Source: a virus
Lineage: Duplodnaviria; Caudoviricetes
Virus record (IMG/VR): IMGVR_UViG_3300050151_000071
Location: 11,923-75,922 of that record
Length of the DNA: 64,000 bases
Reading direction: 5' to 3' (one strand)
Shown one piece after another: positions 6,040-58,921 of the stretch. The notes beneath the pieces were generated by a model. It saw nothing but the letters and a program-made list of their open reading frames with translations, did not search any database and was not told the origin of the DNA. The position numbers and the translations under genes are program-made. Position 1 is the first letter of the stretch. The number at the start of each line of letters is the position of its first letter.

Positions 6040-6738
6040 GTGCCTTTCAAGGAGAAAAGCTTGTTTAATTGTAAAGTTTGTAGTGTTGAAGTCAAAACTA
6101 GTAAAGAGATGTGTAAAAGCTGTTCGCTTAAACTAGCATATTCTGAGGGAAGAGTTAAGGATAAACGTGGAGCAAACAACCCAGCTTTTGGTACTACCAT
6201 CACATCTAGATTGATTAACAAATATGGAGAAGTTGAAGGTGTTCAAAAACTCGACACATGGAAAAATAAACAATCAATAGCTAAGACAGGAGAGTTGAAC
6301 CCCAGTTATGGTAAATTATACGAGAACGGAGGAAGATCCATTAAAGGGTGGTATAAGGGTTTATTTTTCCGTAGTACGTATGAGTTAGCTTTTGTGATCG
6401 ATTTTGAAACAAAACATAAGAAGCTCCCACACAGTGCTGAAAACAAAATTGTGATACCCTTGAATAACGGTAGAACATATACTCCAGATTATTTCTATGA
6501 AAATGTGATATATGAAATAAAACCAAAACGATTATTAATCACACTAAGTGTACAAGACAAAACAACTGCTGCTAATATCTTTTGCAGAGAGCACAATCAA
6601 GTGTATATGGTTATAACAGAATCAGATCTGAGTTCTCTTCCAGTTGAATGGAAGCGTGCTAGCTGGATAAAAGCGCTACTGGAAGAGAACTTAATTACGT
6701 TAACCAACTACTCCATGAGTAAACTTGGAATTAGCTAG
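6040..6738 (+). mobile_element. Free-standing endonuclease: NUMOD3-like repeats plus TnsA-like PD-(D/E)XK domain
   Basis: RGANNPAFG and KTGELNPSYGK repeats; FRSTYE, YTPDYF, YEIKP motifs; opposite strand to its neighbours. Confidence 0.7.
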
Positions 6739-7263
6739 AATACGTTTTCCCCTTGCATTCAGATGCTTCCACTTCGACTTAAATGAAATCGAAGCTATCC
6801 CTCCAAACATAGAGGCATTTGCATGTATTTCAGCTAGACCCGTTAGTAGCAACGTTGCAGCTTGTCCTCGTTCAGCAAAACGAACACATTCTTCTGCTGA
6901 CAACAGATGAACATCCATGTCCATTCTTATTAGCTCAGCTATTTCAAAGTCATCCGAATGCTCTAACCATGTTTCATAGGATACTTTAGCGTGATTTGGA
7001 AAACGTCGTTTTCCATCTTCTCCGACCACTAAGCATCTTGGTTTTCCCGCGTCGTGGTACAAATGATATAGAGCAATCTTCTCGCGATCCATCAGATTGG
7101 TGAGCAGGAGCTCTTTGTACTCCTCCAGCCATTCAGGCATACGCCATTCGAATTGCAGAGGAGTGTCATGCTCGAGATGATTCACAAGATCATTGAAGTA
7201 ATCTCGGACCATCTCACCGTGCTGATAAATCGACATCCCTTGAGTTTGTAAGCACTCATGCAT
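6700..7263 (-). CDS. HD-domain phosphohydrolase
   Basis: QHG...YHDAGKP...PNHA...DMDVH pattern. Confidence 0.8.
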   Translation of the reverse strand: MHECLQTQGMSIYQHGEMVRDYFNDLVNHLEHDTPLQFEWRMPEWLEEYKELLLTNLMDREKIALYHLYHDAGKPRCLVVGEDGKRRFPNHAKVSYETWLEHSDDFEIAELIRMDMDVHLLSAEECVRFAERGQAATLLLTGLAEIHANASMFGGIASISFKSKWKHLNARGKRILANSKFTHGVVG

Positions 7264-7353
7264 GGGACCATCGAGTTGTTCTTGATTGCGGATCTACGTC
7301 ATTTGTTTAGTCTCCTGATTGAAATTGTAGTATATCGTCATTTAAGACGATAG

Positions 7354-7911
7354 TCAACGGGCTAACACTTCTTTAAAGATAGGAAGCATCATATCTTCTG
7401 GTAAGGATGTTCTCTTCACGAAGAAGTCAATGTTCTTCAAATAAGAACACATAGTTCCATCCTCTAAATGAGAATTCCTATACACCAAATCCTCAACATC
7501 AACCAAGTCTTGGTGAGCTTTAATTCTCAAAGGTACCGAATGTCTATCGGTTTGCAAAATGCGTTGAGCAATGGCAACAGCGTGACCCTCAACGATATCA
7601 GTGTCTAGCACCACTACATTTGGAGCTAGCAAAGGTACATCGGGCGAGATGTTGATTCGCCGAGATACAACGTCTCCTCGAGTGTTGAATACTCTGGAAA
7701 CTTGCATATACGGGATGTTAAACTTTTCAGCAAGGTGTTTATCAATGCTAACAGGGACTCCACCAACATAGTTGAAGTCTTTAAGAGTTAGATTGGTGTG
7801 ATCAACTTCTACAGCTACCAGTTCGGTTAGCATATTGATCAGGTTGACTATTCGCTTTTGTAGCGGTACGAGTTCAGGGGTATAACACCGAACGAGGATT
7901 TCTGTTTTCAT
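7354..7911 (-). CDS. Phosphoribosyltransferase-like protein (tentative)
   Basis: VVVLDTDIVEGHAV resembles the type I PRTase PRPP-binding loop; overlaps the upstream adenylyltransferase. Confidence 0.45.
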   Translation of the reverse strand: MKTEILVRCYTPELVPLQKRIVNLINMLTELVAVEVDHTNLTLKDFNYVGGVPVSIDKHLAEKFNIPYMQVSRVFNTRGDVVSRRINISPDVPLLAPNVVVLDTDIVEGHAVAIAQRILQTDRHSVPLRIKAHQDLVDVEDLVYRNSHLEDGTMCSYLKNIDFFVKRTSLPEDMMLPIFKEVLAR

Positions 7912-8554
7912 TTCGTATTTCCGTAGAAGAAATATTAACATTCCCAGGTAGGAATATTATATTTGGGTTGCTGCTCAAGAAATGATACCGATTATAGGTG
8001 GGCGTTTGATCCCTACCTGATACGATACACTTCCCGTGGTCTCGGAAACTCAAAGCAAAGTTTGCTCGGTCCCCGCCACACACAAAGTACGGAGTGTGGC
8101 CTCTGTTACTTAGCTCTGCGTATAGCCTGGTGAAGTTTCGAGAACATCCATCAGGCATTTTATTTTCATCCACAACCATATATTCCAGGTTGGGGATTTC
8201 TTTCAGTTGTTTTTGGAGCTGTGAACCTTGGTATAAAGTCAGAGCATCACAAACTCCCTTACTTTCTCTGTAAGAGTTATGATCAGCATGAATTATAACA
8301 AGAATTTCATCTGAAGTCAACAGTCGAATATATTTCGCTGCATTCATGATTGCTGCTAGATGACCTTCATGAAACGGATAGAAAGCTCCAGAATACTGAA
8401 GAACAATCAAGTTGGGATGATAGTAGGGTAGAGGGAAATGCTCAGTATATGTGCTGATGAATGGCTTATCTTCATCGAAGTATCCAGCAATACGAGCGTA
8501 TTCTTCTCCATAACGATCAACAATGCGCTTATACCATGGATCAGTTATAGCCAT
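7874..8554 (-). CDS. HxGH nucleotidyltransferase (NadD/NMNAT-like adenylyltransferase)
   Basis: SGAFYPFHEGH, FVCGGD and ISSTEIR motifs. Confidence 0.8.
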   Translation of the reverse strand: MAITDPWYKRIVDRYGEEYARIAGYFDEDKPFISTYTEHFPLPYYHPNLIVLQYSGAFYPFHEGHLAAIMNAAKYIRLLTSDEILVIIHADHNSYRESKGVCDALTLYQGSQLQKQLKEIPNLEYMVVDENKMPDGCSRNFTRLYAELSNRGHTPYFVCGGDRANFALSFRDHGKCIVSGRDQTPTYNRYHFLSSNPNIIFLPGNVNISSTEIRNENRNPRSVLYP

Positions 8555-9365
8555 AAGCTATATCTCCTCTGATAATATAACGGTGTTGTTTACCAAAATA
8601 TTCTTCAACCTGGTGACATTTCCAATGAGGAAAGATCAACAGAGCTCCACCATATGGTTGAACACGACTAGCAATTTCATCTCTACGGGCCATATAAGTC
8701 CAATCCTTCAGGTGACCTTCTGGTCTATCCTGAGGGTGAACATATCCCGTTTGAGTGCGATATTCACCTTTCCAGCCAGACCACTCATCATGAACGAATT
8801 GGAACGATCCACCATCATATGGGCGTATGGTGTTGAGAAACAGCACCCAAGAATATAAGGTAATGTATCGTTCTTTTTCGTTGTGGAAAGGAGCATCATA
8901 ATGTGGTGTATGTTGACCGCCTCTGGAATAGCGCATAAAGCGCATCCACGGAGTAGATCCTATCAGGTGATAATTCCGGTTGCAGTCGAATGGGGTATCG
9001 ATGTGAATTCCACCACGACCAGTGCCCCAATGTAGAGTTCGGCCATCACCACGAAGAACGCCAGGAACGAGACCGTCAAACGCTGGGTTTAGTTTTCTCG
9101 CTAACTCAGGTGCCCAAGCGTTAGTTCTGAAAGAACCAGGCTTGGATGCAGCATCAGCGTAACCATCAACACCAACAGCATGTTTTTCTTGTTTTTCGAA
9201 CTCGGTGATGAGGTGTTTGCAGTCTTCATCACGAAGAATAACAGATGGACTCCATGCACCTATCATACCTTTTTCAACTTCAAGGACATTTTGGCTAGGT
9301 ATGTTGGGATTCCACAGAGGCTGCTTGGATCCTTCAGGACCTGCATAGATATCAACGTTATACAT
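8541..9365 (-). CDS. 2OG-Fe(II) oxygenase (prolyl-hydroxylase-like)
   Basis: RFMRY...HYD (HxD), VLFLN, GGSF, CHQV, RYIIR; start overlaps the nadE stop (ATGTATAA). Confidence 0.88.
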   Translation of the reverse strand: MYNVDIYAGPEGSKQPLWNPNIPSQNVLEVEKGMIGAWSPSVILRDEDCKHLITEFEKQEKHAVGVDGYADAASKPGSFRTNAWAPELARKLNPAFDGLVPGVLRGDGRTLHWGTGRGGIHIDTPFDCNRNYHLIGSTPWMRFMRYSRGGQHTPHYDAPFHNEKERYITLYSWVLFLNTIRPYDGGSFQFVHDEWSGWKGEYRTQTGYVHPQDRPEGHLKDWTYMARRDEIASRVQPYGGALLIFPHWKCHQVEEYFGKQHRYIIRGDIAYGYN

Positions 9366-10155
9366 TGGCGGCCTCAAGAATCTTATCGTAGGATTTCTGA
9401 CGGAATTGTTCCAGCTTATCACTGATGTGGAAACCAGGAAACGGGAGCTTATACTTGAAAGCGTTCCGACGAATGTTGTCTTTCACCTTTTCAGGGTTGT
9501 CGCAAGCTCTGAAAGCCATTTCAACTGCACCAACTGTGCTACCATATTCAGCATGACGACCAACTTGTTCGATCTGAGCGTAGGTGGCTCCAATCATTTC
9601 ATAGTCGTTCGTATGAACTGTGACTAGATCACCAGACGGTACAGCATCGATGATGCTCTGTGGAATGTTGAGATCTTTAGCTAAGCTGTACACTTCAGAT
9701 TTGTACAGATGGCTGATGGGATAGAAGTCTTGAGCACCATCCGAGGCTTTACCCCAGAATCCCAAGAACGCAGCTTCACTGAAGTTAGCTGTTCCGACTA
9801 CTATCGGTCGTTGATTGTTACAGTTGAGTTCAGCTGACACACCATAAAACGCTGCATTTCTTAGTATCGGTAGTGCAGCTTCATAGCCTGGACCAGGAGG
9901 AAATGGGTTATCGATGTTGACGTGAATATGGCCAATATCGAACGCTTTAGCAAATGTGAAGGCTCCTTCATCTCCACCATAAGGAGAAGAGAATGTTTGA
10001 CCACCCTGATCAACACTTACAATCATTACAGGAATCTCGGCGGTACGTAGTAAGGCTGCTGTAACAGCAGAATCAATTCCACCAGAGAATCCAACTACAG
10101 CCACGTTGAGATTGCGGTCTTGAAACCACTTCGCACATTCTTCAACAAGATCCAT
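9358..10155 (-). CDS. nadE: NH3-dependent NAD+ synthetase
   Basis: PP-loop SGGIDSAV, GTANFSE, GFWGKASDG, PISHLYKSEV, AVPSGDL; no glutaminase domain. Confidence 0.9.
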   Translation of the reverse strand: MDLVEECAKWFQDRNLNVAVVGFSGGIDSAVTAALLRTAEIPVMIVSVDQGGQTFSSPYGGDEGAFTFAKAFDIGHIHVNIDNPFPPGPGYEAALPILRNAAFYGVSAELNCNNQRPIVVGTANFSEAAFLGFWGKASDGAQDFYPISHLYKSEVYSLAKDLNIPQSIIDAVPSGDLVTVHTNDYEMIGATYAQIEQVGRHAEYGSTVGAVEMAFRACDNPEKVKDNIRRNAFKYKLPFPGFHISDKLEQFRQKSYDKILEAANV

Positions 10156-10216
10156 CGGAGTTCTCCTTTGATTGAATCTTAGCTCAAAAACTCGCAATCG
10201 ACAAGGGTTCTTTTAT

Positions 10217-10254: not shown

Positions 10255-12222
10255 ATGCCTTTATGGTCTAAGTCGCAAAAGCCAAAATATCTAACAACGT
10301 CACAACTTACAAACGTTAATGCTACTACTGCAGGGTGGGTATACAATCACCCAAACGGTTTTCAAGAACTATTGGTAGCAATGAGTGGAGTAACGCCAAC
10401 AATTGATACAGTAACACCTACTTCAGTATTCTTGAAAGAAGGTGGTGCGCCTGGACGTATTATTGCTACTTTAAGTACAAGTGGTGGTGTGGGACCTTAT
10501 ACCTACACGTTAGTTGATGGCTTAACAAACAGATATGATGTTGTTAGTGATAAGTTAGTTTCCGGCACAGCTGTTGCTAGTGCTGGTACTCATGCTCCAA
10601 TTATACGCGTCACGGATGCTATTGGAGCAACAAAGGATGTAACTCTGAGCATAGTACGAACAGCAGACACTGCTCGTAGATTTTCGTGTTTGGGTATGCG
10701 TGCTCCTAACAAAATCGGTACCGCTGCTGCTGGTCGTATTAAGTGGGGAGTTCGTACATATTTTAAAACGCCACCTTATTGGACTAAAGCATGGAAGTTT
10801 GCGTTCACAGATTACTACGTCCTAGAATCAGGATCAACGAACGAAACTGCTATACCCAACAACTTCACAATTGAAGCTGTTGCTATGAAAGTTGGCTCAA
10901 CCGTTTATAATGCTGCAACCGCTATTGGTGGCGGTATCACTGTAATTCCAGCTAACGCTACTGGCGGCGTCGTTGTGGCTCTTGATGACACAACTAGTTG
11001 GATTGCACCGAACACAGACTTCTTCGTCGATTATGCTTTCGCTATTCCAGATGGGGGTCAATATGTTGGTTTTTATGAACCAAAAAATACATCTTCGCCT
11101 ATCCCCAAAGGGGAGTTTATGCGATATGATACAGCAACTTCATTCGCTGCAGCTGTTAATGCAGGAACATTTGTGTCAGGATCACCGTCAGGCGCATTTA
11201 ACTCTGTTTATTCAGGTCCAGCGTGGGCATCTGCTATCGGAGGAGACGGTCGTCCGGTTTTCCTAGGTATTGGTCCATCAGGTCAACACGGTACACCAGG
11301 CGTCACTCGAACGTTTGATACTCAAGGAGTTATGGGTAACGTTGAACCAGCTCTACAACAAATGGGTATGATGTGGGCTTGTACTGCTGTTCGTGGATCT
11401 AAAGCGCAGAATATTATAACAACACCAACCGATTTTAATCGTCGCGGTGCGTTAATAGATCAAGACGAAAACGTTGATGGTACACCACTGTTTGATTGGA
11501 TTATTGCAGATAACCCAAGTGGTAACGATATTGGTGCAATCTCGCCAAACACTTTAGCTGGTTGGCGAGCCGCAGCTAGTACATTTTTCGGTATTATTAC
11601 TGGACGACGGTCGGGCGGCTGGAATAAACCAATTCTTCTATTCGACATGATCGCACGGACGACAACAACCGACAGTTACGGTACACTGGGTAACCAAACC
11701 TACTACGACAGCAATAGCACATACCCAACTGGGATTCGGCACTTAGTTAACGCTGATCTCGCGGCAACCAAACTGAATAGCCTTGCAACAAAGGTAGCGC
11801 TGACTAATGGTGCATTCAGTGATGGTACTGATCCAGGTAAAGTAACAGTTAGTAATAATACATACATTTTAGCTAACAACGTGTTAGCTGCAGCTAACAC
11901 GTTGTATTTGTCGTCGGCTCCTGAAGTAGGTATGGCTTTAGCCGTAGGCAGTAGTACGTCAGCGCGAATCCGTTTAGTGTCCAAAGTCACAACGATTGGG
12001 GCTAACAATTATCAAGTTGATACTTTGAACTTGGATAGTAGCGGTATTTATCCTGCAGCTAATACCGGCGACGTCGTTAGAGAAACATATTCAGCTGATG
12101 GTAACCCAAGCACAACTGGATCACTACATACCAGTCACTACACCAACGTAAACCGAATAGCTCCTGTTGTAAACGTTGAACTTAGTTCAATCTGGGCAGC
12201 TAACAGCTACTACGCAAGCTAA
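10255..12222 (+). CDS. Putative virion protein: MPLW-type N-terminal module, cadherin/Ig-like domain, SGNH-like C-terminal domain
   Basis: N-terminus matches 44450..44992; TLSTSGG...YTYTLV...IRVTD; GPS, GNDIG and DG...LH motifs; late promoter. Confidence 0.6.
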   Translation: MPLWSKSQKPKYLTTSQLTNVNATTAGWVYNHPNGFQELLVAMSGVTPTIDTVTPTSVFLKEGGAPGRIIATLSTSGGVGPYTYTLVDGLTNRYDVVSDKLVSGTAVASAGTHAPIIRVTDAIGATKDVTLSIVRTADTARRFSCLGMRAPNKIGTAAAGRIKWGVRTYFKTPPYWTKAWKFAFTDYYVLESGSTNETAIPNNFTIEAVAMKVGSTVYNAATAIGGGITVIPANATGGVVVALDDTTSWIAPNTDFFVDYAFAIPDGGQYVGFYEPKNTSSPIPKGEFMRYDTATSFAAAVNAGTFVSGSPSGAFNSVYSGPAWASAIGGDGRPVFLGIGPSGQHGTPGVTRTFDTQGVMGNVEPALQQMGMMWACTAVRGSKAQNIITTPTDFNRRGALIDQDENVDGTPLFDWIIADNPSGNDIGAISPNTLAGWRAAASTFFGIITGRRSGGWNKPILLFDMIARTTTTDSYGTLGNQTYYDSNSTYPTGIRHLVNADLAATKLNSLATKVALTNGAFSDGTDPGKVTVSNNTYILANNVLAAANTLYLSSAPEVGMALAVGSSTSARIRLVSKVTTIGANNYQVDTLNLDSSGIYPAANTGDVVRETYSADGNPSTTGSLHTSHYTNVNRIAPVVNVELSSIWAANSYYAS

Positions 12223-12614
12223 GAATTAAACAAATCATCAAGAGAGGGGGAAGTAGTAGCTTCCCCCTTTTCTAATTCCCGAACTTCCACTAACCCCGAC
12301 TCATTGAGCCATTGAGCTACCAACTGTCTGTGACAGAAATCTGTTGGCTTCTCATAGCACAACAAAACATCTCCATCTTTTAGATCAGCTACAACTTTAG
12401 CAGAATCCAACGTAGATAGATGCTCTTTGAAGATCTTCGTATATCCTTGAACATCCACATCTCCAGCTTTATAAGCCTTAACTAAATCCCACGTGGGAGC
12501 TAGTGGAGGATAATGACCAATGTTGGGATAGAATCTGGGACGTTGGACACTAATAGAAACGGCTTGCACATGCTTGCCGTTTCTTCCGTAGTATGATGTG
12601 TAGAGCTTCTTCAT
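12219..12614 (-). CDS. DUF488-family protein
   Basis: LYTSYY, LAPTW, LLCYEKP..FCHR. Confidence 0.8.
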   Translation of the reverse strand: MKKLYTSYYGRNGKHVQAVSISVQRPRFYPNIGHYPPLAPTWDLVKAYKAGDVDVQGYTKIFKEHLSTLDSAKVVADLKDGDVLLCYEKPTDFCHRQLVAQWLNESGLVEVRELEKGEATTSPSLDDLFNS

Positions 12615-33807: not shown

Positions 33808-36735
33808 CTAGATCGTGTCGTCTGAGTGTTTTAGTTTTTCAAGAGCATTTGTGTGGTTTGCTTTTCTTACTAAAGTATCTGAGTGTGCTCTTAACTTATC
33901 TCGGTTAGATGGTACGTGTGGCTCTACGCTCCAGATATGAACTTTACTTTTAATGTTGTTTGTTCTAATACTACCATCTTCATCGCGCAAAACGTGATGG
34001 TCACTTCTAGTTACAACCTTATGTCCAGTCATCTTCCAATGTTGACCTTTATCCATTAGGTATTCGTGTTCACCATCACACTTAGAGATGTTGTCAACGT
34101 ATGTGCCCTTATCGTATCCCTTTGGTAGATGGAAATGCAACACATGATGTTCTGTAATATGTTGTGGACGGCCAGCAGTTGTTGCAGTTCTTTGTTCTTT
34201 TTCTTCTCTAGCGAATACCGCACCTTGTCTTGGGTTTAAACTAGTAGACGTAAAGGCTGGCATGTGAATAACGCCACCGTTCTTTTTAAAATGTTCTCCT
34301 GGGTGGAAGCCACCAATACCACTATACACGTGTGCTTCGTGGTCTAACGGTTTTGCAAAATGAGCTATGGCTTCAGATAATGCGTTAACCTTTTCATGAT
34401 CAAATTTGTTGGGCGAACCATGAATTAAAGCGGTGTTTATTCTACCAGACATCTCTCCAGTATATTGTTTTAATGCATGGGCGTGATCGTGTGTTTTAGG
34501 AGATGTGGGATCAACCCACAAGTGTTCTTTAGATGGTCCAAACGCAGACATCTTTTGATGATGATCATTTGAGTGGTCAACATTAAACTCATTTTTAGTA
34601 GCGTTTAGATGTTCAACTTTACTACTTCTAGCGTGTGGTAGGTCTACAGTTCTAAGACTTGTATCATTAAACCCACGGACCTTATAGCTTGAATCTCTAA
34701 ACATCTTTGGATCGTGGAAGTACGCTTCGGTTAGTTTTTGATACGGTCGCATAGACCATATGTGTCTATTTCCAATTTTCTGATGTCCAACGTGTTCAAA
34801 TGTTTGGTTCTTATCAATAACCATTTCATGCTCGTGCTCAATGTGCGAAGCTGGAGCGATGTATCTACATTTGTTGTATCCCTTAGGTAGTTCAAAGTGT
34901 AGGATATGAGTCTCTTTGTGAGCGTTGCTTGCACCAGGGTTAGCGTGCATACCAGCAACTTCAGGATTAAGAGATGCACAGATATACGTTGCTGTTTTGA
35001 AATGATTCTTGTGGTGTATTAACGACCCAGGACTTACTTCTCCGAAGCTCGAATAAACGTGGTGCGTATGCTCAAGTGGCTTTGCTGTACTCATCAAATG
35101 ATCCATATGATTTGTTACAGCTTGAAAGTCAGGATGCATTGGAAGGTTGTTAATCAAATGGTGAGTTATTGTTGCGCTTGATTCACTCCATGTTCCAATG
35201 TGAGTATGATGATCCGGATGATCACAGTGATGCAAAGCTGCCAAATGGTTATGCTCAGCTTCATGGTGCTCGGATGAATCAGGGGCATCCCAATCTAGAC
35301 CTAACGGATCTTTCTCTGTATTAAAGTGGGGGTTATTAGGATCGTGAGAGTGTGCCATTTCTTTTAATGTATCTTCATGAGGTACTACAGACCAAATATG
35401 CACATGGTGCTCAACGTTTGTACCATCAGTTTTCTTTTGATTCTCTTTAACAACTGTATGTTGCTTCAACTTCCAAGATTGTCCTCTGTCGAGCAAATAT
35501 TCTTTCTCATATCCAACATGACTTGCTCCATGCACATACGCTCCCTTGTTGAAACCTTCTGGGAGATGAAAATGAAGTACATGTCGATGAGTTTGCTTGT
35601 TATCACCAGGAGTAAAGTGGTGTTGTGAAAACCCTTTAGCTATACTAGGATCTATAGAAGTGGATGTAAAAGCTGGTAAATGAATTTTACCACCTTCTCG
35701 TTTGAAGTGATCCGTAGGATCAAAGTGTCCTAAGCCACTGTAAACATGCGCCTCATGATCAAGTGGTTTTGAGTAATGTTGAATCGCTCTGGAAATTCTA
35801 TCAGTTTGTTTAGTAACGAATGATGAATCATGGCTTCCGTTATGGCCACTAATCAAAACCATATTAATAGGGTACGATTCGTCTGTATATTCATTTAAAG
35901 TTTTAGCATGATGGTGGTGTTGTGAGTTTATATTTCTGAAATCATTACCAACTTCTTTAAACGCTGCATGCATACGGTCGTGGTGTGATTCTGCTCGTAT
36001 AGCTGTTGATGCAGCAGATACGGATGTCAAGTCCTCTACATCATGGTTGAATAACTCGTTCAACTTAGCATCGTGTGGCTTAACATGCCATATCGTACGC
36101 TTAGTTGTAGGAGTCATTTGGTGTTCTGTTTTACCAGTCACCTTCCACTTACTGTTTGGACGCAATAAGAACTCACGTTCTTCAGGGAACTTTGAGGTTC
36201 CTCCGATGTACAAACCGTGTTGTGATCCTGCTGGAAGCTCAAAGTGGATTATGTGGTGGTCGTGTTTAGCAGAATCAGACGTAGCGTTTGCGTGCATAGC
36301 AGCGATACCTGGATGTAAGCTAGCACTTGTGTGAGCTGGAGTATGGAACACACCATGCTCACCAACTGCAGAACTAGGATCAAAATGACCTGTTGATGAA
36401 TAAACATGGTGAGTCTTTTGTAAAGGTGCAGCCGAATCATACATCGTATGCAGATTCTTATGCAAGGACTGTTGCATAATCGTAGGAGATTCACCTCTAA
36501 CTAGACGACTGTTTAAATCTCCCGACTCAACTCCAGTGTATCTTAGAATTGATAGTGGATGCTTTCCAACAGCATCTTTGTGTAGCTGTCTTAGTTCTCC
36601 ATGCTCTTGAGCAATTTCGTGAGGTTGTTTCACGTGTTGAAAGAATGCAGTCTCTGTATCTTGCAGATGATCCTTCATAGCGGCATTATGCTGATAAGCT
36701 TCGTGCAAATGGTCTAAGAAGGGTTTGATTGGCAT
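33808..36735 (-). CDS. His-rich protein with four tandem VIP2/C3-type ADP-ribosyltransferase-like domains (Alt-like)
   Basis: Four repeats of Y/W-T/S...N/T..L, VYS, TSxS, HF.LP.G and ExE (EERE, YEKE, HEHE, GEHE). Confidence 0.8.
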   Translation of the reverse strand: MPIKPFLDHLHEAYQHNAAMKDHLQDTETAFFQHVKQPHEIAQEHGELRQLHKDAVGKHPLSILRYTGVESGDLNSRLVRGESPTIMQQSLHKNLHTMYDSAAPLQKTHHVYSSTGHFDPSSAVGEHGVFHTPAHTSASLHPGIAAMHANATSDSAKHDHHIIHFELPAGSQHGLYIGGTSKFPEEREFLLRPNSKWKVTGKTEHQMTPTTKRTIWHVKPHDAKLNELFNHDVEDLTSVSAASTAIRAESHHDRMHAAFKEVGNDFRNINSQHHHHAKTLNEYTDESYPINMVLISGHNGSHDSSFVTKQTDRISRAIQHYSKPLDHEAHVYSGLGHFDPTDHFKREGGKIHLPAFTSTSIDPSIAKGFSQHHFTPGDNKQTHRHVLHFHLPEGFNKGAYVHGASHVGYEKEYLLDRGQSWKLKQHTVVKENQKKTDGTNVEHHVHIWSVVPHEDTLKEMAHSHDPNNPHFNTEKDPLGLDWDAPDSSEHHEAEHNHLAALHHCDHPDHHTHIGTWSESSATITHHLINNLPMHPDFQAVTNHMDHLMSTAKPLEHTHHVYSSFGEVSPGSLIHHKNHFKTATYICASLNPEVAGMHANPGASNAHKETHILHFELPKGYNKCRYIAPASHIEHEHEMVIDKNQTFEHVGHQKIGNRHIWSMRPYQKLTEAYFHDPKMFRDSSYKVRGFNDTSLRTVDLPHARSSKVEHLNATKNEFNVDHSNDHHQKMSAFGPSKEHLWVDPTSPKTHDHAHALKQYTGEMSGRINTALIHGSPNKFDHEKVNALSEAIAHFAKPLDHEAHVYSGIGGFHPGEHFKKNGGVIHMPAFTSTSLNPRQGAVFAREEKEQRTATTAGRPQHITEHHVLHFHLPKGYDKGTYVDNISKCDGEHEYLMDKGQHWKMTGHKVVTRSDHHVLRDEDGSIRTNNIKSKVHIWSVEPHVPSNRDKLRAHSDTLVRKANHTNALEKLKHSDDTI

Positions 36736-57723: not shown

Positions 57724-58679
57724 TACTTAAACCTACAGTTAGCCATAACCTCAACGAAGAAGGCTACAAGGTTCACTTCTTGGTCTGCAACCCATGCGGC
57801 CTTAAACTGATAGTCAGCAATATGAAGAATGAGTACAGGGACAGTGTCATCAGAAAGCTTAGGAGCTAGATCGTCGTAGAACTTACGGAACACAGTTGAC
57901 GCATCAACATCGCTATGCTCGCCTGCCCACTTGCGAATCTCTGTGAAGTTCTTAGCCTTCAATAGGTCGTAGAGCTTGTTCCAATCACCATCAGAAAGGT
58001 TCGCTAGAATACCATCATCGATCGTGCCGGTTGACGAGTATGCTTGCATCTCATTAATCACTTTACGCCAGTTCGGCATATACTTTGTAATTAATTGTGC
58101 AACTGCATTTTTGTCGTAGTTAATCCCTTCTTTTTCCAGGATTTCTTTGGCCCGCTTAAAGAATTCAAGGGCCATAGTCTTCTTCTCAGTCGCGGTGACT
58201 TTGAAGTCGATTTGTGCTAGTCTACCAACGAGGGGATCGATGATCTTCTGTGGATAGTTGCACGTGAAGATAAACCCACAGTTAGCAGAATACTCTTCAA
58301 TGAATCGACGAAGAGCTGGTTGAGTTGCGTGGGATAGATAGTCAGCTTCATCTAGGATAACCATCTTGCGTTCTCCGTCCATAGAGACGGTCGCAGCAAA
58401 CTGCTCAATTCGGTTACGTAGGACGTCAATAGTACCGTCCTTGGATCCGTTGATAATTAGGTATTCGATTCCAAGCTCTTCACACATTGCTACCGCAACT
58501 GTGGTCTTCCCTACTCCCGACGATCCTGAAAGAAGCAGGTTGGGAATATCTTTGTTGTCCACATACTTCTGGAACTTGTCCTTCATGTCTTGTGGTAGAA
58601 TACATTGCTGTACAGTCTTCGGGCGATACTTCTCAGCCCAAACCATATTACGAATGTCGTTGTCCAAATTTATACTCAC
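57723..58679 (-). CDS. 44: Clamp loader large subunit (gp44)
   Basis: WAEKYRP, G.GKTT, DEADY, CGFIFTCN. Confidence 0.95.
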   Translation of the reverse strand: MSINLDNDIRNMVWAEKYRPKTVQQCILPQDMKDKFQKYVDNKDIPNLLLSGSSGVGKTTVAVAMCEELGIEYLIINGSKDGTIDVLRNRIEQFAATVSMDGERKMVILDEADYLSHATQPALRRFIEEYSANCGFIFTCNYPQKIIDPLVGRLAQIDFKVTATEKKTMALEFFKRAKEILEKEGINYDKNAVAQLITKYMPNWRKVINEMQAYSSTGTIDDGILANLSDGDWNKLYDLLKAKNFTEIRKWAGEHSDVDASTVFRKFYDDLAPKLSDDTVPVLILHIADYQFKAAWVADQEVNLVAFFVEVMANCRFK

Positions 58680-58690
58680 TTATTACATTA

Positions 58691-58921
58691 TTAATTCCAC
58701 CGGACAATGCCGATGATGTTCACGATAGTGTATACGACGTACATGGAAAAAATCCCATAGGCTTTCTTTCGAACTGCCCATCCTATTAGGAATACGTTTG
58801 AAACAATATAGAGGACGAAGCCCCATTTTGAATATGGTAAGTTTACAGCAATTAGCAGGCTTCCGGCAACGCCTAAAATGGCTCCGATAGCTTCAATTGC
58901 TCTGTTGAATGTGATCTTCAT
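58691..58921 (-). CDS. Three-TM membrane protein resembling half of a PnuC/SWEET transporter
   Basis: Three hydrophobic helices ending VNIIGIVRW. Confidence 0.6.
   Translation of the reverse strand: MKITFNRAIEAIGAILGVAGSLLIAVNLPYSKWGFVLYIVSNVFLIGWAVRKKAYGIFSMYVVYTIVNIIGIVRWN

Follow-up and report, generated by a model that had tools for sequence, protein, structure and literature searches.

The four-gene locus

A 64,000-nucleotide stretch of viral DNA (Duplodnaviria; Caudoviricetes), corresponding to positions 11,923 to 75,922 of IMG/VR record IMGVR_UViG_3300050151_000071 and referred to here as the window, carries four overlapping genes whose predicted products point towards the metabolism of nicotinamide adenine dinucleotide (NAD). 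They encode a NadE-like protein, a 2-oxoglutarate- and Fe(II)-dependent (2OG-Fe(II)) oxygenase, a nucleotidyltransferase (NT) and a small phosphoribosyltransferase (PRT)-like protein designated g4, and are laid out as follows:

10155..9358, minus strand: NadE-like gene, 265 amino acids (aa); predicted NH3-type NAD synthetase (PP-loop amidoligase)
9365..8541, minus strand: 2OG-Fe(II) oxygenase gene, 274 aa
8554..7874, minus strand: HxGH/ISST nucleotidyltransferase (NT) gene, 226 aa; NMNAT/NadD type
7911..7354, minus strand: PRT-like open reading frame (ORF; g4), 185 aa; divergent type I phosphoribosyltransferase-like
10204-10176, minus strand: weak sigma-70-like promoter candidate for the operon (TTGTCG-N17-TAAGAT), in the divergent intergenic region upstream of NadE

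A preliminary description of this DNA had reported overlapping nadE, oxygenase, adenylyltransferase and PRTase-like genes, and this is indeed the arrangement seen: the NadE and oxygenase genes overlap by 8 nt (ATGTATAA), the oxygenase and NT genes by 14 nt, and the NT gene and g4 by 38 nt. Owing to these overlaps, the four are probably translated as a single unit. The NadE gene begins with the ATG at 10155, preceded by the ribosome-binding site AAAGGAGAA; a TTG at 10197 was considered as the start and rejected in favour of this site. For g4, the ATG at 7911 is taken as the start because the homologues all begin M-K/I-T-E-I-L, and a start at 7941 was rejected. The candidate promoter, read directly from the sequence, matches the consensus at 8 of 12 positions, below the scanning threshold, and only weakly suggests an origin for the operon transcript; promoter-like sites across the region occur at chance level (8 found, 8.8 expected). 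A similarity search of the operon DNA against isolated phages gave no match.

Predicted activities of the four proteins

The NadE protein clears the thresholds of its family, with a Pfam NAD_synthase match at 3.9e-25 (88.8 bits, cut-off 21) and a TIGR00552 score of 87.5 bits, over the cut-off of 63.65. The signature blocks SGGIDS, GTANFSE..GKASDGAQD and PSGDL can be read directly in the protein. By these thresholds and blocks the gene is assigned as an NH3-type NadE, and a glutaminase domain is absent from the 265-aa product. Scores against two equivalog models lie below their cut-offs (NF010587, 101 bits against 255; NF001979, 55 against 250). When a profile of the family was compared with solved structures, the best match was 3fiu, the Francisella nicotinamide mononucleotide (NMN) synthetase, at 87 bits, followed by 1xng at 79 bits; the margin of 3fiu over 1xng, 3p52 and 2e18 is small, and a preference for nicotinate adenine dinucleotide (NaAD) or nicotinate mononucleotide (NaMN) cannot be read from it.

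The NT protein matches the Pfam CTP_transf_like family (1.4e-4, 22.5 bits, cut-off 21) and the NMNAT family phrog_3462 (2e-6), and contains the motifs PFHEGH and ISSTEIR. Residues H62, G64, H65 and S209 are invariant in 10 homologues, and S210 and R214 are kept in at least 90% of them. The NadD model TIGR00482 covers the protein over its full length (1.3e-5), yet at 25.3 bits against a cut-off of 112, and the NadR-domain model scores 15.3 bits against 341. A profile of the family matched best, among structures in the PDB, the NMNAT domains of NadR (1lw7, E 0.006, and 8x7f; E 0.006-0.013 for NadR) and archaeal NMNAT, and in alignments the motif GAFYPFHEGH is akin to the G[KR]F[YQ]P[LF]HxGH of NadR and archaeal enzymes. 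These matches, all of them weak, place NT closest to the NMN/NaMN adenylyltransferases.

The oxygenase matches Pfam PF13640 (2OG-FeII_Oxy_3) at 7.6e-8 (33.7 bits, cut-off 27). Its iron triad, H155-x-D157...H251, and R/K262 are invariant in 26 close and 5 distant homologues, and so are R80, R142 and R266, arginines that could bind an anionic substrate. Close members of the subfamily number at least 26, and most of their contigs are 80-517 kb long. An AF2 model (pLDDT 87) shows a double-stranded beta-helix like those of prolyl 4-hydroxylases (P4H) and the PHD enzymes. In a VIA-align comparison the best Z, 14.6, was shared by several structures, among them OGFOD1, PHD2, Pseudomonas P4H and PolD; the tied group includes two enzymes of nucleotide-type substrates, PolD and PasI. 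Such a many-way tie gives the clade and allows no oxygenase substrate to be inferred from it, and on the modelled fold the protein is placed in the prolyl-hydroxylase-like (P4H/PHD) clade of the 2OG-Fe(II) superfamily. At the sequence level, the PDB returned only P4H (E ~0.3). A 111-aa antisense ORF within the oxygenase gene (8523-8858, plus strand) groups with counterparts from three relatives; most probably it only mirrors the conserved coding strand and does not represent a gene.

The fourth protein, g4, has no match among the Pfam and PHROG family models. Its AlphaFold model is of high predicted quality (pLDDT 97), and almost all Foldseek matches to it are type I PRTs or phosphoribosyl pyrophosphate (PRPP) synthetases (E 3e-3 to 4e-2), with orotate phosphoribosyltransferase (OPRT) at the top; in VIA-align the same two groups make up most of the top 20 chains (Z 5.2-6.9). 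The protein carries an atypical PRPP-loop-like segment, VVVLDTDIVEGHA; the consensus of the family reads IIDTDxVxGxT. In the PDB, nothing usable came from searches with the single sequence or with an 8-sequence profile, and only a 40-sequence profile aligned VVVLDTDIVEGHA with the PRPP loop of adenine phosphoribosyltransferase (E 0.2). Homologues of g4 that are fused to other proteins hold a canonical PRPP loop (LLDDDIASGST), and Pfam Pribosyltran matches a single distant member of the family (E 0.0011). The preliminary description had offered a PRTase-like identity as a weak call; the fold matches, persuasive in their consistency though middling in score, and the motif now uphold g4 as a predicted type I PRT at the level of fold and motif, and as a putative enzyme. 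The family is small: tblastn of g4 against the phage collection gave no match, a word-indexed search found 2 relatives, and a full hidden Markov model search recovered 53 representatives, of which 40 have E <=1e-10. The contigs of further distant matches were too short for gene context to be obtained.

Co-conservation and gene fusions

All four families are present in every long contig examined (L003/L006, L005/L012, L007/L015, L008, L009/L013 and L014), at 37-56% identity and in shuffled order, and their co-occurrence extends to at least six independent phage lineages and at least ten independent loci. The order NadE-2OG-NT-g4 seen in the window is replaced elsewhere by g4-NadE-x-2OG-NT or by NadE-..-2OG-NT-x-g4, and in one arrangement g4 lies 4 kb apart from the rest. 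More distant copies were found in two isolated phages. In Acinetobacter phage ME3, the oxygenase gene is followed, further along, by ME3_299 (a member of the g4 family, E 8e-30), NadE and, beyond it, a macro gene. In Xanthomonas phage BUDD, a 372-aa 'hypothetical' protein is a fusion of NT and g4 and is followed by the oxygenase and NadE, with NMNAT and NAMPT genes nearby.

Fusions occur in three kinds. A distant homologue of g4 forms the N-terminal domain of PRT::NadE fusions (465-495 aa), and at one locus (L019) an oxygenase gene lies directly upstream of such a fusion. NT::g4 fusions are represented by the BUDD protein and by others of 629-642 aa. In NadE::2OG fusions (581-620 aa) the oxygenase is C-terminal, and those of 581-583 aa, identified in a search with the oxygenase profile, each adjoin a 629-aa NT::g4 fusion and an Asp/Glu-racemase gene. 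Only pairwise fusions among the four families turned up in the searches, and no all-in-one protein of roughly 1,200 residues. The oxygenase is an obligatory partner of NadE, physically joined to it in some bacteria, and the linking of all four proteins in pairs by fusion is strong evidence for a single pathway or complex.

A scan of species-representative genomes located the fused module in three metagenome-assembled genomes (MAGs), those of a Ca. Uhrbacteria, a gammaproteobacterium and a Ca. Obscuribacter; additional metagenome loci repeat the architectures of these MAGs and all carry the 2OG fusion. In three bacterial lineages an Asp/Glu-racemase gene is inserted between the fused genes. The racemase was considered as a universal member of the module and rejected, none being found in phages G000-G003.

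The four overlapping genes of the window are therefore co-conserved in other genomes, in shuffled orders and with three types of fusion, and so pass the co-conservation check that the preliminary description had set. The idea that the module is specific to phages does not hold, since bacterial chromosomes carry it, which marks it primarily as a metabolic pathway, a function in counter-defence being inferred. The same observations bear on one alternative, namely that the four genes are unrelated neighbours packed together by compaction of the phage genome. Overlapping genes are common in phages, and the chance-level frequency of promoter-like sites noted above would suit such a view; recurrence at ten or more independent loci in shuffled order speaks against it, and the three kinds of fusion effectively refute it, leaving it a negligible probability.

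Links to NAD metabolism

In the gammaproteobacterial MAG (L030:603-7738), the co-directional genes NrtR, NAMPT, NT, g4, Asp/Glu racemase and NadE::2OG follow one another, NrtR being a Nudix-related NAD regulator (1.5e-21). The NT and PRT-like ORFs of this locus overlap by 157 nt in different frames and may represent a frameshifted fusion. In phages, islands of NAD-related genes with NADAR, NadM-Nudix, NAMPT and SIR2 lie beside the module. A PF04095 gene (type II nicotinate PRTase PncB/NAMPT fold) is present in all three of the complete module-bearing phages checked; the 75.9-kb record from which the window is drawn, ~42% complete, gave no PF04095 match. The complete 517-kb phage G002 has an operon of NadM-Nudix (372 bits), the nicotinate PRTase PncB (372 bits) and a weak PncA-like isochorismatase (L028:4323-7331) 13 kb from its four-gene module. 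Combined with NadE, this operon makes up a Francisella-type gene set. The NrtR-NAMPT linkage, the phage islands and the G002 operon together tie the module to NAD metabolism, and they show it to be additional to the known type II PRTase routes, not a replacement for them.

This coexistence with complete salvage sets (NAMPT and NadM; PncB, PncA-like and NadM) is also what lends interest to a different product, since the base used by the PRT is then probably a different one. On this account the module would make an NAD analogue or another modified pyridine-type dinucleotide, with the oxygenase creating the base, by hydroxylation, desaturation or otherwise, or tailoring the nucleotide, and with the type I PRT, NT and NadE handling this non-standard base. 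The product could serve as a special cofactor, an RNA cap or a substrate for ADP-ribosyltransferases (ARTs), or could inhibit NAD-cleaving defence enzymes or act as their decoy. The constant presence of the oxygenase would fit, as would a type I PRT fold unlike all known pyridine PRTases, the divergence of NadE and NT below equivalog cut-offs, and PolD and PasI among the tied oxygenase folds. The NrtR-NAMPT linkage and the NAD islands, however, indicate ordinary NAD homeostasis, the catalytic motifs of NadE are canonical, no candidate base is evident, and redundant salvage routes are common in large phages (PMC11662467). We regard an analogue as unlikely, though it is the main rival of the route proposed below.

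The macro, NADAR and Nudix genes near the module in relatives raise the prospect of ADP-ribose (ADPR) recycling similar to that of NARP1, a described phage NAD-reconstitution pathway. Here g4 would activate ADPR, or use ADPR-pyrophosphate instead of PRPP; the activated ADPR and nicotinate would give NaAD, and NadE would complete the route by amidation. The best matches of g4, by fold as well as by sequence, include PRPP synthetases, and the Adps enzyme of NARP1 is PRPS-like (PMC13586617). Against this, g4 is a single 185-aa domain whereas PRPP synthetases are two-domain proteins of ~300 aa, the NAMPT-like Namat is not in this record, and both NT and the oxygenase are left unexplained, all of which makes the proposal quite improbable.

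The place of OPRT at the head of the g4 Foldseek matches suggests a further alternative, one unrelated to NAD, in which the module modifies nucleotides or nucleic-acid bases: the oxygenase would take a methyl group to a carboxyl group, as thymine-7-hydroxylase and TET do, and the NadE-like protein would amidate the resulting pyrimidine-5-carboxylate, a group that we consider chemically similar to nicotinate. The oxygenase lies in the P4H/PHD-like clade, however, and chains of TET/JBP and thymine-7-hydroxylase are absent from the top 50 VIA rows for its model (a weak negative); in addition NT is nearest to NMNAT/NadD, and the linkage to NrtR, NAMPT, NadM and PncB speaks against it. We consider base modification very improbable.

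Two other claims about NAD in this phage had accompanied the description of the operon. The presence of an NAD-consuming ART is borne out by an ORF of 975 aa (33808-36735, minus strand) in which ADPrib_exo_Tox is matched three to four times in tandem (best E 1.6e-12); tblastn of this ORF against the phage collection gave no match. The half-PnuC-like protein fared less well. What is seen at ~58634-58900 (minus strand), ~50 kb from the operon, is a PnuC/NMN_transporter-like fragment covering profile positions 2-86 at 26.4 bits, under the cut-off of 27.3; the match holds four stop codons, the open frame is 77 aa, and the fragment is probably a remnant.

A proposed route to NAD

Taking these results together, we consider it somewhat probable that the module is a self-contained, deamidated-type route to NAD in which an oxygenase step is coupled to amidation. 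Judging from family and fold, g4 would couple PRPP to a pyridine base with a carboxyl group, nicotinate being the simplest choice, the NMNAT/NadD-like NT would add AMP, and the NH3-type NadE would turn the carboxylate into the carboxamide, the product being NAD. NadE might act on the dinucleotide, as in the classical order, or on the mononucleotide, as in the Francisella order. The oxygenase would perform an oxidative step coupled to amidation, in its most likely form by delivering the amide nitrogen through oxidation of an amino compound; alternatively, it would make or tailor the base. Coupling to amidation is favoured on account of the fusion to NadE, the lack of a glutaminase domain in NadE, the racemase of the bacterial loci and the invariant arginines; an amino acid might lose ammonia or an imine, for example, or an N-acyl-amino-acid might be unmasked oxidatively to give the primary amide. 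For the phage, the module would serve to increase or restore an NAD pool that is used by its own multi-domain ART and by DNA replication and depleted by host defences; a role in counter-defence is plausible.

Several observations weigh against this proposal. The fold scores of g4 are middling (Z <8, Foldseek E >1e-3), and both NT and NadE lie under the NCBIfam equivalog cut-offs. To our knowledge, the known nicotinate, nicotinamide and quinolinate PRTases are all type II folds, so that a nicotinate PRTase of type I would be without precedent. The standard route to NAD requires no oxygenase. In G002 the module comes on top of NadM-Nudix, a canonical PncB and a PncA-like gene, and in other phages on top of NAMPT and NadM, sets that would make a plain nicotinate route redundant in those phages. 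Finally, the source record is a ~76-kb fragment, which limits the inventory of the phage's NAD genes. The Preiss-Handler-type route put forward in the preliminary description accordingly stands in part. Its link to NAD is supported by the bacterial NrtR-NAMPT linkage and by the phage islands with NAMPT/NadM/PncB; it leaves the oxygenase unexplained, and sits awkwardly with the set already held by G002.

A more specific form of the proposal, which we advance tentatively and think unlikely, has the oxygenase supply nitrogen to NAD synthetase, as a partner of a third kind, within a self-contained route whose first enzyme would be a new nicotinate PRTase of type I. The substrate oxidised would be either an amino acid or an intermediate, an N-acyl-amino-acid, that NadE produces; the oxidation would free ammonia or an imine, or unmask the primary amide, at the active site of NadE. 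Such a role would account for the strict pairing and fusion of NadE with an oxidase, the missing glutaminase, the insertion of a racemase and the invariant arginines.

Comparison with known NAD routes

The Preiss-Handler pathway (PncB, NadD, NadE) shares with the module the succession of PRTase, adenylyltransferase and ATP-dependent NH3-type NadE, and both are linked to NAD regulators and salvage genes. The two differ in that PncB is a type II enzyme of ~400 aa whereas the PRT of the module is a 185-aa protein of predicted type I fold, in that NT and NadE of the module are divergent paralogues, and in the 2OG-Fe(II) oxygenase as an obligatory fourth member. Clusters of pncB, nadD and nadE are known in jumbo phages, from annotation only (PMC11662467), so a phage NadE route by itself is not new.

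In Francisella, a NadE acting as an 'NMN synthetase' converts NaMN to NMN, which is then used by NadM (PDB 3FIU, PMC12143786). The profile of the module NadE is closest to this very structure, NT resembles NMN-type adenylyltransferases, and the PRT::NadE fusions would fit amidation at the level of the mononucleotide. The Francisella route has type II PRTases and no oxygenase partner, whereas the module has an oxygenase and a type I PRT-like protein. An analogy for the pairing itself may be found in glutamine-dependent NAD synthetase, in which a nitrilase-type glutaminase is fused to NadE: there too a second enzyme accompanies NadE, and by analogy the oxygenase might likewise supply the amide nitrogen. 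The partner is a glutaminase in the one case and in the other a 2OG-Fe(II) oxygenase, C-terminal in the fusions.

Phage-borne rebuilding of NAD, as proposed for the module, is the function of NARP1 (Adps and Namat) and NARP2 (Nampt and Nmnat, the NadV/NatV type of KVP40). The preliminary description had stated that neither uses NadE. This agrees with the papers, the report of both pathways containing no mention of NadE or of an oxygenase (bioRxiv 10.1101/2024.02.11.579819), and it is true also of NARP3, which consists of a PnuC-like transporter and a NadR-like enzyme (PMC13464706). NARP1 and NARP2 lack NadE, a type I PRT-like protein and an oxygenase; the module has all three. Relatives that have the module carry the Nampt and NadM-Nudix of a NARP2-like set adjoining it, while the ~42%-complete record has no Nampt. 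NARP1 combines the two-domain, PRPS-like Adps with the NAMPT-fold Namat, whereas g4 is a single domain and the record has no PF04095 protein. With NARP3 the module shares the NadR-type G-x-F-x-P-x-H-x-G-H motif of NT; the NARP3 enzyme, however, is a bifunctional NadR-like kinase/adenylyltransferase, whereas the 226-aa NT has no ribosylnicotinamide-kinase domain, and the NARP3 transporter has as its counterpart in this phage only the sub-threshold PnuC-like fragment with its stops.

Full-text literature searches for the combination of NadE, oxygenase and PRTase found no description of the four-enzyme set, and the module most likely serves to make NAD, one oxidative step of the route being unexplained. 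The supply of NAD is a central point of conflict where phages meet defences that deplete it, Thoeris, DSR and SIR2-HerA among them. NAD biosynthesis is regarded as a closed chapter, and a four-enzyme set that spans many large phages and several bacterial phyla, and includes an unrecognised predicted PRTase family and an oxygen-dependent enzyme tied to NadE, suggests either a new route to NAD or a new NAD-like molecule. In the former case, both the enzyme that activates the base and a nitrogen or oxidation step would be new. Each possibility would add a further phage system for NAD reconstitution to NARP1-3, provide annotation for hundreds of 'hypothetical' phage and bacterial proteins and offer new enzymes for NMN/NAD bioproduction.

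Neighbouring genes and other observations

The following features lie outside the conserved module, the third in relatives and the others in the window:

7263..6700, minus strand: HD-domain protein gene, adjacent to the module
6040-6738, plus strand: endonuclease-like ORF (TnsA-like N-terminal domain, NUMOD3, phrog_15427)
L002:7422-9197, L005:17390-19100 and L008:17223-18955: genes for proteins of ~380 aa and ~190 aa
45462-47142, minus strand: second HxGH-type nucleotidyltransferase (288 aa; phrog_3041 'cytidyltransferase', 2e-40)
12219-12614, minus strand: DUF488 (active N3a subclade) protein, 3.7e-11

The HD protein (Pfam HD, 8.5e-4; phrog_14850, 7.7e-57) had been counted as part of the operon in the preliminary description, an assignment we do not retain. 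A gap of 90 nt separates its gene from g4, a promoter-like site of its own (TTGACT-N17-TATACT, 7357-7329) precedes it, and it is not co-conserved with the module: in L003, the closest relative, an unrelated gene follows the PRT-like gene, and in jumbo phages HD homologues lie far from the NadE module; ME3, for instance, has HD at 166 kb and the module genes at 218-221 kb. The HD protein was therefore rejected as a member of the pathway. Just before its ORF (7263-7302, minus strand), a good AGGAG ribosome-binding site is followed by ATG-ACG-TAG, which shares the frame of the HD ORF and leads into it, while the ATG of the HD ORF itself (7263) has no clear ribosome-binding site; the arrangement may reflect a mini-ORF, reinitiation or stop-codon read-through. 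The endonuclease-like ORF converges on the HD gene, overlapping its 3' end by 39 nt, and may encode a homing endonuclease.

The ~380-aa and ~190-aa proteins lack a Pfam match; both are conserved, in BUDD and in two jumbo phages, close to the NAD islands. Within the window, the second nucleotidyltransferase adjoins a DUF6267/phrog_455 protein and is not obviously related to NAD, and the DUF488 protein is encoded near the divergent neighbour of the operon.

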